Of a DNA stretch of 64,000 bases, positions 12,252 through 41,090 are shown piece by piece. Source of the stretch: Pecten maximus (Eukaryota). How positions within the stretch are numbered: position 1 is the stretch's first letter; each line of letters opens with the position of its first letter. Below the pieces are notes generated by a model, which had not been told where the DNA came from, did no database searches, and was given only the letters and a program-made list of their open reading frames with translations. The position numbers and the translations under genes were made by a program. Where the stretch lies: positions 39,494,001 through 39,558,000 of the forward strand of contig NC_047021.1 of NCBI RefSeq assembly GCF_902652985.1. The letters are read 5' to 3'.

Positions 12252-13414
12252 GTCAGTGGGGAGTAGAATGGGCAATTTTTTTTCATGCTTTATTCATGTG
12301 TGTTTCTGCCTCCATAAACTTGGGATGTACAATATGCATCATAAACATCAGCATAGTATAATTTTTTTTTTTTTTTAAACTGAACAAAAATTGAACAAAT
12401 ACAAAAATGAAGACAGTAAAATGTGTCAAATGCTTTTCCTCTACAACAGTTACTATTTTGCTGGTCCATTATAAAGGTATCAACAGATATATTTTTTCAG
12501 AAATCCATTTCAGTGCCTGGTCAGTAACCCACGGCCTCTGTTCATGAATATTTAGTTGGTTAAAAGAGACCTCAACAAGTAGTCTGAAGAATCACTAGGT
12601 TATCCAGTAAATTTCTACAGCTTATCCAGAAAACAAACAAAAAAAACAAAAAAAAAACAAAAAAAAACAAATTCTGAGTGTGAGTGACCTCCCTTTAACT
12701 AGTATGAAAGCAGGGATGTTTTGGGACAGTGTTTACTTTAAATGTGGCTGTTCATACACTGCATACTGGCTTTTGTAAATGTGTCCCAAACATCATTGCA
12801 TAGATGTTACAAATGTTTTCATATGTTTCATAAACATACTGATTTCTGCTTAAATATTTCAGTCCTAGCTTTCATGCAACTTCTCGATGAGAGTATTTTT
12901 TAGCAATAATTTATTTTGTGTATTTGTGAATACCTATTTTGTATATATATGTATTGTTATTTATGTTTAGCAGGATTTGTACAATTTCAATCAATGTGTG
13001 TACTTAAATATTAAATTATTTTCACTGCAATTATACCATGATAAAACTGATTAAGTTGTCATTGAAATAGTTACTTGAAAGTTTTTGTCAAACTGACCTA
13101 TGATATGTCGCTTCATCTTAGCTGTTTGATATTTAAATCCATTAAACTTTTTCTGCTATACAAAAGCCATTCTGGATTTTACAAAATTTTACAGAATTAT
13201 ATACATAGATACATGGGTACAGGTATGAATTGCTATTTTCTATGTAGATTAAAAATACAAGATGGCCACCGCTGTCTGTCACTGGACAAAACAATTCCAT
13301 GTAGATCATAAATGTATATGAAAACTGTATTTATATATAATATAGAATAAAGTTTAAAGTGTCCATGTGACGGTAGATAATTATAGAATAAAAAGTCAAA
13401 CACAGATCTGCTGT

Positions 13415-13456
13415 CTCCCTAGTACTTTCGCGGCTACATCGTGCCGCTCTTCAGGG
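13415..13456 (-). ncRNA. Minimal type I hammerhead ribozyme motif (intact core, stem I truncated to 2 bp)
   Basis: CC-CUGAAGA-GCGGC[ACGAUGUA]GCCGC-GAAA-GUAC-UA^GGGAG: full core, perfect 5-bp stem II, palindromic GUAC loop III. Confidence 0.8.
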
Positions 13457-13474
13457 TGCCGAATAAAATTCACA

Positions 13475-13519
13475 TTCCCCTGAAGAGCAGCACGATGTAG
13501 CCGCAAAAGTACTTGGGAG
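13475..13519 (+). ncRNA. Mutated minimal hammerhead motif (full stem I, G12A core mutation)
   Basis: UUCCC-CUGAAGA-GCAGC[ACGAUGUA]GCCGC-AAAA-GUAC-UU-GGGAG; stem I is UUCCC/GGGAG. Confidence 0.65.
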
Positions 13520-14404
13520 ACAGCAGATCTGTGTTTGACTTTTTATTCTATCAATATTTACCGTCACATGGACACTTTAAACTTCATTCTATAGCAATAT
13601 GATGTTAAATGGACCAACACATTATGATCAATGGAGCTAGATTGGAAGTTTTAACAAGTCAAATTTCAACCATATGCCAGAATTCAAATGTCTTAAACAA
13701 GTAGTTTGTGAAGTTTGCTTCAAACATTATACAATTATGCTTCCAGGAAACTTCCATGTTTGAACTCATCATTACAGTTTTCAGGATGGTGCTGAAATCC
13801 TCATTAATAGGGCTAACCATTCACAGCCTCGTTTTGATACTGGTATACCATTTCTAGATTTATATGTTTTTACTCGCCAGTAAATCAGTTTTTATAACAA
13901 ATATATGTTTGGTTTACTTTGTAATGTAATTATAAGGTAAATATGGGAAATTATCAGTGATTTTTTTTTTTTGTGATTTAGTTTTCATTATAAAACATGT
14001 TACCCTTTTCTGTGATCATTGTGAAATATAGACCATTTTAAAGGATTTTTAAAGTGAGTTTGTAATGTACGTAGCTTATTACATTTTATATGAACAATCT
14101 CTTTCAAGTTTTTCCATTGTGTATGACATCATGGAATGGGAAGAAATTTGAGGAATTCTTTTATCAAATACATGACTTGATTATTTTAATGGATACATTA
14201 TGTCAAAAGTTAAACCAGAAAATACACACTTAATTTTACTTGTGTTATAAAATATTGATGTCTAAAATTATCCAATTCATAATAGATCACTTTAGGTAAT
14301 GTTTAAGTTAAGAAAAACTCGGTGAAAATTTCATATGGTCAGAAATGATCTATCGCTTTCACCATTGCAGTGATTTTTATTATGATGTTACTCTTGATTT
14401 ATGA

Positions 14405-36649: not shown

Positions 36650-37320
36650 CTTGCCCAGCTTATATTAGCCAGAGTTTCCTCTGACCCTGACACCTGCAGA
36701 CTTGGACACTCTGACTAATAAATATCAATGTCACAGGCACTATCTGTCAGGATGTCTAAATCTGGTGACAGGGCCAGAGGAAACTTGGACTAGGCCTAGT
36801 CTGGCCCAAATTTCCGCTGGCCCTGACATCAGGTTTAGAATCCCTGATTAATAGATATTGATGTCACAGACTGTAGGCTGTATGTCTTAGTCTGGTGTCC
36901 AGGTCAGAGGAAACTCGGACTAGGCCTAGCCTGGCCCAAATTTCCGCTGGCCCTGACATCAGGTTTAGAATCCCTGATTAATAGATATTGATGTCACAGA
37001 CTAGGCTGTATGTCTTAGTCTGGTGTCCAGGTCAGAGGAAACTCAGACTAGTCCTAGCCTGGCCCAAATTTCGGCTGGCCCTGACATCAGGCTTAGAATC
37101 CCTGATTAATAGATATTGATGTCACAGACTGTAGGCTGTGTGTCTTAATAGTCTGGTGTCCAGGCCAGAGGAAACTCGCTAAGGCTTGGCCTGGCCCAAA
37201 TTTCCGCTGGCCCTGACATCAGGCTTAGACATCCTGATGAGTAAATATCGATGTCACAGGCTGTATCTGTCAGAATGTCTGGTGTCAGGGCCAGAGGAAA
37301 CTCTGACAAGGCCTGGTCTT
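36650..37320. repeat. Five ~130-bp tandem units, each an imperfect ~40-bp-arm hairpin, separated by the palindrome gactaggcctagtc or variants
   Basis: ctggcccaaa at 36801, 36931, 37059 and 37191; arms agtttcctctgaccctgacacc... / ...ggtgacagggccagaggaaact. Confidence 0.85.
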
Positions 37321-37888
37321 ATAGATCTGTAATAAGTAAGAGTTTGTATTGACATGATGAGGAAGGCTTTGTAAATGTATGTGTACATTATAATTGTACT
37401 TGTGTGATGACTGTGTAGCAGGAGGTCATGTGACTTATCTCCCAGTCACAAGGAGGTACATTACATCAATAACATCAATAGGATTCTCAAACATCAATTA
37501 GTGAAGTCCCTACATAATGGGCTTGGGAGGGGGGAAGTGGAGGGAGGGGGCACAGCCATCAATAACAAACAGCAGCAAGCACAGACAGCTCAAATCTCCC
37601 AGCTCATAATGGCATATGTCTTCAAAACATATCAACAACTTTCAGGAGGCCAATTTGGCCTCCACTTTAAGAGCAGGCGTGACCTACATGTAGTTGACAA
37701 ATATACCAGGGATTTGAATGCTGTTCTGAGCACTTGTAGTGTTACTGTTCAACAATTAATGTGCTTATATTAACCATTTACTAGTGTACACATGTACCTT
37801 AATATGTAATATGACATGTAAATCATAATCTATATATATATATATATATATATAATTAATTAAAAATATATAATGTCCTTGTGATGGG

Positions 37889-38040
37889 TATACATAGTAA
37901 TAATAATAAAAAACACAAACCAGAAATTCACACTAGCGCTCTCAACATGCTTTGAGAGCAAGCTCTTCAGGTGTAATGAAGAGCTTGCTCTCAAAGCATG
38001 TTGAAAGCGCTAGTGTGAATTATTATTATTACTATATATA
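37889..38040. mobile_element. Foldback element (45-bp arms 37925-37969 / 37977-38021, 7-nt loop, outer AAT-rich arms) carrying degenerate minimal hammerhead motifs; Penelope-like remnant
   Basis: Arms match at 44/45. Minus strand: UUACAC-CUGAAGA-...-GAGA-GCGC-UA-GUGUGA. Plus strand: UGAAGA-...-GAAA-GCGC-UA-GUGUGA. Confidence 0.7.
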
Positions 38041-39084: not shown

Positions 39085-41090
39085 AAGATCTATTAAGCAG
39101 TAGAAACTATACAGATCTATTAAACAGTAGAAACTATACAGATCTATTAAACAGTAGAAACTATACGGATATATTAAACGGTAGAAACTCTACAGATCTA
39201 TTAAACAGTAGAAACTATACAGATCTATTAAACAGTAGAAACTATACAGATCTGTTAAACGGTAGAAACTCTACAGGTCTGTTAAACAGTAGAAACTATA
39301 CAGATCTATTAAACAGTAGAAACTCTACAGATCTATTAAACAGTAGAAACTATACAGATCTATTAAACAGTAGAAACTATACAAATCTATTAAACAGTAG
39401 AAACTATATACAGATCTATTAAACAGTAGAAATTCTACAGGTCTGTTAAACAATAGAAACTATACAGATCTATTAAACAGTAGAAACTATACAGGTCTAT
39501 TAAACAGTAGAAACTATACAGATCTATTAAACAGTAGAAACTATACAGATATATTAAACAGTAGAAATTATACAGATCTATTAAACAGTAGAAACTATAC
39601 AGATCTATTTAACAGTAGAAACTATACAGATCTATTAAACAGTAGAAACTATACAGATCTATTAAGCAGTACAAACTATACAGATCTATTAAACAGTAAA
39701 AACTATACAGATCTATTAAGCAGTAGAAACTATACAAATCTATTAAACGGTAGAAACTATACAGATCTATTAAACAGTAGAAACTATACAGATCTATTGA
39801 ACAGTGGAAACTATACAGATCTATTAAACAATAGAAACTATACAGATCTATTAAGCAGTACAAACTGTACAGATTTATTGAACAGTAGAAACTATACAGA
39901 TCTATTAAACAGTAGAAACTATACAGATCTATTAAACAGTAGAAAGTACACAGATCTATTAAACAGTAGAAACTATACAGATCTATTAAACAGTAGAAAG
40001 TACACAGATCTATTAAACAGTAGAAACTATGCAGGTCTATTAAACAGTAGAAACTGTACAGATCTATTAAACAGTAGAAAGTACACAGATCTATTAAACA
40101 GTAGAAACTATGCAGGTCTATTAAACAGTAGAAACTATACAGATCTATTAAACAGTAGAAACTATACAGATCTATTGAACAGTGGAAACTATACAGATCT
40201 ATTAAACAGTAGAAACTATACAGATCTATTAAGCAGTACAAACTGTACAGATTTATTGAACAGTAGAAACTATACAGATCTATTAAACAGTAGAAACTAT
40301 ACAGATCTATTAAACAGTAGCAACTGTACAGATCTATTAAACAGTAGAAACTATACAGATCTATTAAACAGTAGAAAGTACACAGATCTATTAAACAGTA
40401 GAAACTATGCAGGTCTATTAAACAGTAGAAACTGTACAGATCTATTAAACAGACGAAGAAATTACACAGATCTATTAAACAGTAGAAAGTACACAGATCT
40501 ATTAAACAGAAGAAACTATACAGATCTATTAAACAGTAGAAACTATACAGATCTATTAAACAGTAGAAACTATACAGATCTATTAAACAGTAGAAGCTAT
40601 ACAGATCTATTAAACAGTAGAAACTATACAGATATATTGAACAGTAGAAACTATACAGATATATTAAACAGAAACTATTCAGATCTATTAAACAGTAGAA
40701 ACTATACAAATCTTTTAAACAGTAGAAACTATACAGATCTATTAAACAGTAGAAACAATACAGATCTATTAAACAGTAGAAACTATACAGATCTATTAAC
40801 AGTAGAAATTATACAGATCTATTAAACAGACGAAGGAATTATACAGATCTATTAAACAGTAGAAACTATACAGATCTATTAAACAGACGAAGGAATTATA
40901 CAGATCTATTAAACAGTAGAAACTATACAGATCTATTAAACAGTAGAAACTATACAGATCTATTAAACAGTAGAAATTATACAGATCTATTAAATAGAAA
41001 TTATACAGATCTATTAAATAGAAACTATACAGATCTATTAAACAATAGAAACTATACAGATCTATTAAACAGACGAAGAAATTATACAGA
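39085..41090. repeat. 27-bp minisatellite, ~74 copies (agtagaaactatacagatctattaaac)
   Basis: 9-aa periodic ORFs on both strands. Confidence 0.97.

Follow-up and report, generated by a model that had tools for sequence, protein, structure and literature searches.

A hammerhead-bearing foldback of Pecten maximus: two Penelope-like element ends joined head-to-head, and the 5' stop of their copies

A short palindromic insertion with a hammerhead ribozyme motif may be a small retroelement of its own or a piece of a larger one. This question is raised by a foldback in the window, the whole stretch of 64,000 nucleotides of Pecten maximus DNA which we have analyzed. Its arms (37925-37969 and 37977-38021), identical at 44 of 45 positions, enclose a 7-nt loop, GGTGTAA, as an earlier note on this sequence had described. 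The motif was also read correctly: The minus strand is TTACAC-CTGAAGA-GCTTGCTCTCAAAGCATGTT-GAGA-GCGC-TA-GTGTGA, with a 6-bp stem I and a palindromic GCGC, and the plus arm starts at U4, without C3, and retains GAAA. The interval proposed for the foldback, 37889..38040, is correct for the arms but too narrow for the element, which includes a tail (37857-37893) in a (TA)n run. The whole insertion, about 180 bp (37857-38035), is inside this run, and its parts are given in Table 1. Only one arm bears the tail, of about 37 nt; the other one has a private deletion of 17 nt between 38021 and 38022, a bulge when folded.

Table 1. Features of the foldback and of a comparison element in the window. Positions are those of the window; +1 is the predicted hammerhead cut site.
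Feature	Position	Strand	Remarks
(TA)n target run, left flank	37831..37854	.	From the window sequence; nearly all family A copies end in (TA)n
PLE tail, about 37 nt	37857..37893	-	+41 to +77 from the cut site; last bases ambiguous with target
pLTR segment, predicted cut site (+1) to inner 3' end point (+40)	37894..37933	-	Contains stem I 3' strand (37928-37933) and a U-rich tract; end point placed where tail and target sequence part ways, at +41
Minimal type I hammerhead motif	37934..37976	-	Predicted inactive in the window copy
Stem I 5' strand	37971-37976	-	Window hammerhead
CUGAAGA	37964-37970	-	Window hammerhead
Weak stem II	37944-37963	-	Window hammerhead
GAGA	37940-37943	-	Window hammerhead; private A>G at 37941
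Palindromic GCGC	37936-37939	-	Window hammerhead
UA	37934-37935	-	Window hammerhead
Head-to-head junction	37977..37980	.	4-nt TTCA/TGAA microhomology; common to L002-L005; 37977 is the A of TTCA (C3-7), the modal 5' end of family A
Second, tail-less arm	37977..38035	+	From U4 of the core to +40; canonical GAAA
TA target residue, right flank	38036..38040	.	
Family B comparison element	13341..13593	.	Head-to-head pair of ends of another PLE family; arms stop at C3-21 and C3-2 (L126)

The window foldback consists of two ends of a Penelope-like element (PLE) with a Neptune-type linker, both truncated at the 5' side and joined head-to-head. By itself it is an ordinary, decayed by-product of this retrotransposon; the 64-kb window contains no PLE coding sequence. 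An Rfam scan of the window gives no hammerhead match at E 5. Two other identities have been set aside. Rfam matches to microRNA hairpins are only sub-threshold, far below the gathering score; as for a MITE, the foldbacks have variable centres and asymmetric ends, unlike a fixed-length element with the TIRs of a DNA transposon. The foldback is flanked by a 128-bp tandem repeat with internal inverted parts (36752-37314, 4.4 copies) and, on the other side, by a 27-bp satellite (39086-41072, 74 copies).

The element family and its hammerhead

We have searched the 918-Mb genome of Pecten maximus. With a 20-nt motif taken from one arm we find 175 exact matches, and none with the reversed control; head-to-head CTGAAGAGC foldbacks are found 28 times, also against none in the control. 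With such counts, this foldback family (family A) is not due to chance. The hairpin query gives 106 matches, from 40 scored candidates out of 261. Our family A loci are all 69 which hold the first 100 of the 175 motif matches (contigs 1-12).

Copies in this family form a continuous range, from tens of bases up to 3.3 kb upstream of one identical end. In the long ones a reverse transcriptase (RT), a C-X4-C-X2-C linker and a GIY-YIG endonuclease (EN) are found directly upstream of the identical hammerhead end; such ORFs are present in L031, L032, L036, and L189, and the order, RT followed by a C-terminal GIY-YIG, is that of EN+ PLEs. Pfam detects the GIY-YIG domain (E 4.4e-7) and no RT domain at E 0.01; we have recognised by eye the motifs DKG and FLDD, which we take to be those of an RT. 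The linker is C-GRPR-C-GT-C and the endonuclease contains IY..CKHC..YIG..H..H (CCHH). A CX2-5CxxC linker and a CCHH endonuclease motif define the Neptune clade in the available text of PMC8557442. The clade label Neptune is provisional: It rests on the linker motif, which Nematis has too. The full-length copy L183/L189 is a partial tandem with the hammerhead in its pLTR, where endonuclease, 3' UTR, hammerhead, tail, about 45 nt and an ATG follow each other. Hammerhead, tail and ATG are within about 165 nt, with some 120 nt between the cut site and the ATG, and the sequence of the window tail continues there into the 5' UTR and the ATG.

The copy L189 (G000:C15:30184500-30191500, minus strand) contains an ORF1 of 355 aa and, in the -1 frame, the RT/EN as a second ORF. 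The same layout is found in L032, L036, L073, L074, and L190-L192. A T-TTT-TTA heptamer, presumably a slippery site of the HIV type, is in phase within the ORF overlap in seven of eight distinct family A copies. The -1 frame is open for 776 aa in three copies, and only a weak hairpin is found downstream of the heptamer. We do not present this layout as new, since the legend to Fig. 1 of PMC8557442 mentions a frameshifted ORF1 in PLEs.

Family A has the features of a minimal type I hammerhead: CUGANGA, GAAA, UH, stem I and a palindromic loop III. Its two commonest intact core variants account for 80 of the 111 arms tallied (54 and 26, tandem copies included). The extra nucleotide seen in stem II of the window copy is real, a U, but it is a subfamily trait which separates these two variants (54 vs 26 arms). 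On the other hand, GAGA is found in one arm of 111, that of the window copy, and the family retains GAAA, as the proposal of a ribozyme family demanded. We assume that this change, at A14, abolishes hammerhead activity. Since GAGA is private and the other arm has no C3, neither arm of the window locus is predicted to be a working ribozyme. The stem II region of family A folds at -3.6 kcal/mol, with competing registers, and that of family B at -8.5.

Minimal hammerheads paired on opposite strands were described as early as 2014 (PMC4209133). Like them, family A has a type I core, a long stem II and palindromic positions 15.2-16.2. The published cases are mostly single motifs, ascribed to truncated PLEs, and include "dual min-HHRs 100-700 bp apart on opposite strands". 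Family A differs from them in the conserved G10.1-C11.1 pair, which is missing (a G-U, or an extra U, is found in its place).

The other foldback, near 13.4 kb, was described in the earlier note as unrelated in sequence. It does belong to a different family, B, but this is a related PLE: Its RT/EN is 49-62% identical to that of family A over long blocks (L304). The coding partner of family B is located in L304-L306; ORF scans of the family B loci L104 and L112 found none. Thus partners of the autonomous type, which had been expected, have been found for both families.

Several loci show other arrangements. In L306 (G000:C1:17399000-17408000) three direct family B hammerhead ends, 3.1-4.5 kb apart, are each followed by the same non-family sequence, a pattern of tandem duplication or of carried flank. 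In L244 (G000:C4, near 40744361) family A sequence upstream is joined to a family C hammerhead at a shared CTGAAGAG box, which suggests a template switch between families. A single (TA)n run holds a stack of different PLE families, up to three deep, in L004, L073, L208/L240, L070/L250, L095/L164, and L122. Finally, the otherwise dissimilar pLTRs of the four families, A-D, share three features: TGACGTCA repeats, then an AATAAA at a distance of 7-20 nt upstream of C3, and a U-rich tract after the hammerhead. This context could serve 3'-end formation or as a promoter.

Where the copies end

We have mapped the 5' ends of the arms by anchored alignment to natural long copies. Among the 96 family A arms with the exact motif (69 loci among the matches listed, the tandem array counted once), 41 end in the interval from C3-11 to C3-2, vs 6 and 7 in the bins on either side (p 2e-10). 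The corresponding figures for family B are 27 of 79 arms, vs 4 and 9 (p 1e-5; 67 loci, from the first 80 of 97 matches). The breakpoints are therefore not random relative to the hammerhead in either family, as had been anticipated. The ending chance per 10-nt bin is 0.54 in this interval and 0.08 and 0.17 beside it in family A, 0.61 and 0.17 and 0.24 in family B. The same breakpoint was also claimed for the 13.4-kb element. This is true of only one of its arms, because they end at C3-21 and C3-2.

The mode is a single base, the A of TTCA: 16 arms end there in each family, and at position -1 we find none in family A and three in family B (non-exact arms are included in this tally; two duplicate loci, surplus array units and arms reaching the reference limit are excluded). 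The stop follows the motif rather than C3, its offset is -7 in family A, -9 in a variant of it (two arms) and -8 in family B. The sequence TTCA(T/C)(T/A) fits the initiator consensus BBCA+1BW, as worded in the available text of PMC5287114, and TGACGTCA repeats are found upstream of the stop in the four families. The available parts of PMC2377424 and PMC8557442 place a promoter within pLTRs.

The earlier note placed the breakpoint at a ribozyme-defined end of the RNA. This is contradicted by the position of the pile-up, some 40 nt upstream of the cut site. The cut site itself is not a stop: 170 of the 179 family A arms with +1 to +20 keep four bases 5' of the cut, so that at most 9 can end there, and in family B the figure is 3 of 79 exact arms. 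Nor is the stop peculiar to foldbacks, as a mechanism specific to them would require, since solo copies stop in the same interval (19 of 34 in family A, 15 of 42 in family B). A stop which is neither foldback-specific nor cut-defined leads us to conclude that the ribozyme marks the place of the stop, but its cut does not set it. In PMC4209133 processing at the cut site was proposed for minimal hammerheads, the genomic ends found here do not reflect the cut.

Rather than a transcription start, the pile-up might mark the end of a processed RNA, trimmed by an exonuclease as far as stem I, or a place where the folded hammerhead stops RT, which would be released once past the last helix; it might also come from AT/TA bases that anneal easily to the (TA)n target. 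In families A and B no more than 1-4 nt separate the site from the base of stem I, an AATAAA is just upstream in the four families, and minor AT-rich peaks are present at C3-20 (three arms, family A) and C3-17 (two arms, family B), all of which speak for such explanations. Nevertheless, the mode tracks TCA rather than stem I, and stem II is weak in family A. The excess also persists when arms abutting AT runs are removed together with the five loci of the window type: The counts are then 22 vs 8 in family A (n 65, p 9e-6) and 17 vs 11 in family B (n 62, p 3e-3). Poly(A) cleavage takes place 10-30 nt from AATAAA; the A is only 1-7 nt from it, so we have set aside this origin of the RNA end. Overall, we regard this group of explanations as quite unlikely, although an RNA end or RT stop set by structure is still a rival to be reckoned with. 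A splice acceptor, like the one in helix I of the D. virilis Penelope (PMC4209133), has also been considered and rejected, no AG is found at the site in families A-D.

Families C and D gave a mixed result as a test of the predicted stop (first 30 of 87 and first 30 of 52 matches). In family C, the ends cluster from C3-4 to +1 (14 of 30, with three on the A at -3), a broad peak that reaches into the core, as a stop set by structure might. In family D, two of 30 arms end at the A of that family (-6), and 14 of the 30 extend further, by at least 71 nt. There is a possible minor cluster of 5' ends from about C3-39 to C3-49 (five arms, L032, L081, L190, L078, and L086), perhaps a second start.

Paired arms, tails and junctions

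The architecture of these insertions is already published. In the available parts of PMC8557442 and PMC3846280, EN+ PLEs have a pLTR, an inverted 5'-truncated copy, a 30-40 bp tail at one end and a (TA)n target. Our copies agree in their head-to-head truncated copies, one-end tail, (TA)n target and partial tandems, and also in a TSS inside the pLTR, putative in our families, an RT with a C-terminal GIY-YIG and a CX2-5CxxC linker. They differ in two ways. A fixed 5' stop by the hammerhead is not part of those accounts, as far as the available text goes, and the arms in the window are so short that they form a hairpin of about 180 bp. A literature search, with limited coverage of subscription papers, has found no published fixed 5' stop beside a PLE hammerhead; it may nonetheless be in print. 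The clue provided by the 5' stop is well-supported but unproven.

Exactly one arm is tailed in 33 of 34 two-arm loci of family A, where the inverted arm is 5'-truncated and the tail has about 37 nt, and in 23 of 25 of family B, among the matches listed. There are two fixed 3' ends in family A, at +40 and at about +77. Arms overlap by microhomology at 13 of 26 measurable junctions in family A and 10 of 24 in family B; filler of 4-83 nt is found at 9 of 26 and 10 of 24, and blunt joins also occur. The junction of the window recurs at five loci. These repeats would be expected, since its 4-nt TTCA/TGAA microhomology adjoins the hot spot.

It has been suggested that such foldbacks are separate non-autonomous palindromic retroelements with a ribozyme, which propagate as hairpins and break at a ribozyme-defined RNA end. 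Most two-arm loci are indeed short hairpins (22 of 34 in family A, 23 of 25 in family B), L001 and L002 share junction, haplotype and tail side, as do L003 and L004, and one run, presumably of RNA, contains a foldback junction with a loose end. But the 34 two-arm loci of family A among the matches listed have 29 different end pairs. Moreover, arm lengths are continuous up to the copies with ORFs, the single informative recurrent junction is shared by three subfamily haplotypes, with the tail in either polarity, hardly any arms end at the cut site, and the window copy has no intact core on either arm. This reading is already largely refuted and we consider it very improbable.

A further possibility is snap-back: The 3' end of the first cDNA would fold on itself (TGAA onto TTCA) and prime its own copying, and the endonuclease or repair would trim one side to +40. 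The microhomology at the window junction, repeated at five loci, and the overlaps at about half of the junctions are what snap-back would leave, and self-priming has been proposed from palindromic junctions in rotifer PLEs in the available text of PMC3846280. In six of seven long pairs both arms have the same haplotype, which also speaks for snap-back, as it accounts for this just as well as the copying route proposed below. The filler at other junctions does not fit, nor does the position of the tail, which in junctions of the window type is on the long arm in two loci and on the short arm in three. In the remaining long pair, L036, the two arms come from different source haplotypes, each of them matching other loci, which suggests two templates. 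Snap-back also leaves the same stop in solo copies unexplained, and appears unlikely to us, if still worth keeping in mind.

Tandem copies are also present. The locus L038 (G000:C5:43497816-43498857) contains six head-to-tail 165-nt units and an inverted arm. Each unit runs from the A of the hot spot to the start codon of the element, a layout repeated in L010, on C1451. This is apparently a retrozyme-like array born from the pLTR, and among our loci the only one with two or more tandem units and complete hammerheads. It resembles animal non-LTR retrozymes, non-coding derivatives of PLE pLTRs which carry hammerheads, as presented in the available text of bioRxiv 10.64898/2026.07.22.740005. The window element differs from those described there: It is an inverted pair without two intact tandem cores and so falls outside the definition of a retrozyme.

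A possible copying route and its meaning

The available part of PMC8557442 states that the origin of inverted and tandem PLE ends is unresolved. We consider it reasonably probable that the window foldback, a head-to-head pair of 5'-truncated ends of an EN+ PLE in a (TA)n run, was made when both cut strands of the target primed reverse transcription at two internal sites of the RNA and the copies ran off its 5' end, probably a transcription start one base before stem I. One strand would be primed at about +77 and the other at +40. If the RNA begins at the A of TTCA, priming in the first pLTR would give a cDNA of only 85-120 nt before the copy runs off, and priming in the downstream pLTR would give long copies. 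The two cDNA ends would then be joined head-to-head, through microhomology or filler, or one of them would be joined to the target to form a solo copy. We infer both-strand priming, for which another PLE provides a precedent in vitro, and likewise the start of the RNA and the joining of the ends.

This precedent is the anole Poseidon PAc element, in which both strands are cut and extended and RT starts at two internal sites bounding the tail, according to the available text of Frangieh et al. 2024 (PMC11167929). The tail on one arm only is what such both-strand extension would leave. In the same source the target is AT-rich and hammerhead cleavage is not required, which is also our reading here. 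On the other hand, PAc belongs to another clade and its ORF starts inside the hammerhead, unlike the family A ATG, and its account, as far as available, covers neither 5' run-off nor head-to-head joining.

A transcription start is the simplest reading of the 5' end of the RNA, and probably the right one. The run-off proposal is supported by the units of L038, which also begin at the A of TTCA. In RNA runs (contigs only), a 10-20-fold step in depth is seen at the hot spot (L036:8431), but host transcripts contain short copies, so the step cannot show a start. Copying of an RNA 5' end may leave a G derived from the cap, a signature for which a literature search found no supporting paper. Overall, we see no excess of such a G in front of the A (9 of 32 vs 38 of 143, p 0.51); in paired arms, a subset chosen afterwards, it is found in 8 of 14 vs 29 of 97 (p 0.046). 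The first A of many solo copies could come from the (TA)n target, and the two copies with a 5' pLTR before the ORF do not start at the hot spot: L189 starts far upstream and L190 about 30 nt upstream.

We also put forward, tentatively, a more general proposal: Short PLE insertions may be run-off cDNAs of the strong-stop kind, from an initiator one to a few bases before stem I, two target-primed products, each on its own RNA, being joined head-to-head. If this is true, genomic copies alone would map PLE transcription starts and show twin priming on two templates, and arrays of retrozymes, L038 among them, would take their origin from this run-off end.

In summary, the pattern of 5' ends across the family matters more than the window element. 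The same sharp stop in solo, paired and arrayed copies, away from the cut, yields a prediction that can be tested, a transcription start at one named base, and indicates that the copied RNA is not defined by hammerhead cleavage. It would also explain the large number of minimal hammerheads that look intact in such genomes, because the shortest of the common products is just long enough to contain the motif in full. Such PLE copies end unusually often right before the ribozyme, likely because the copied RNA begins there, and these ends would be a record of how PLEs are copied.
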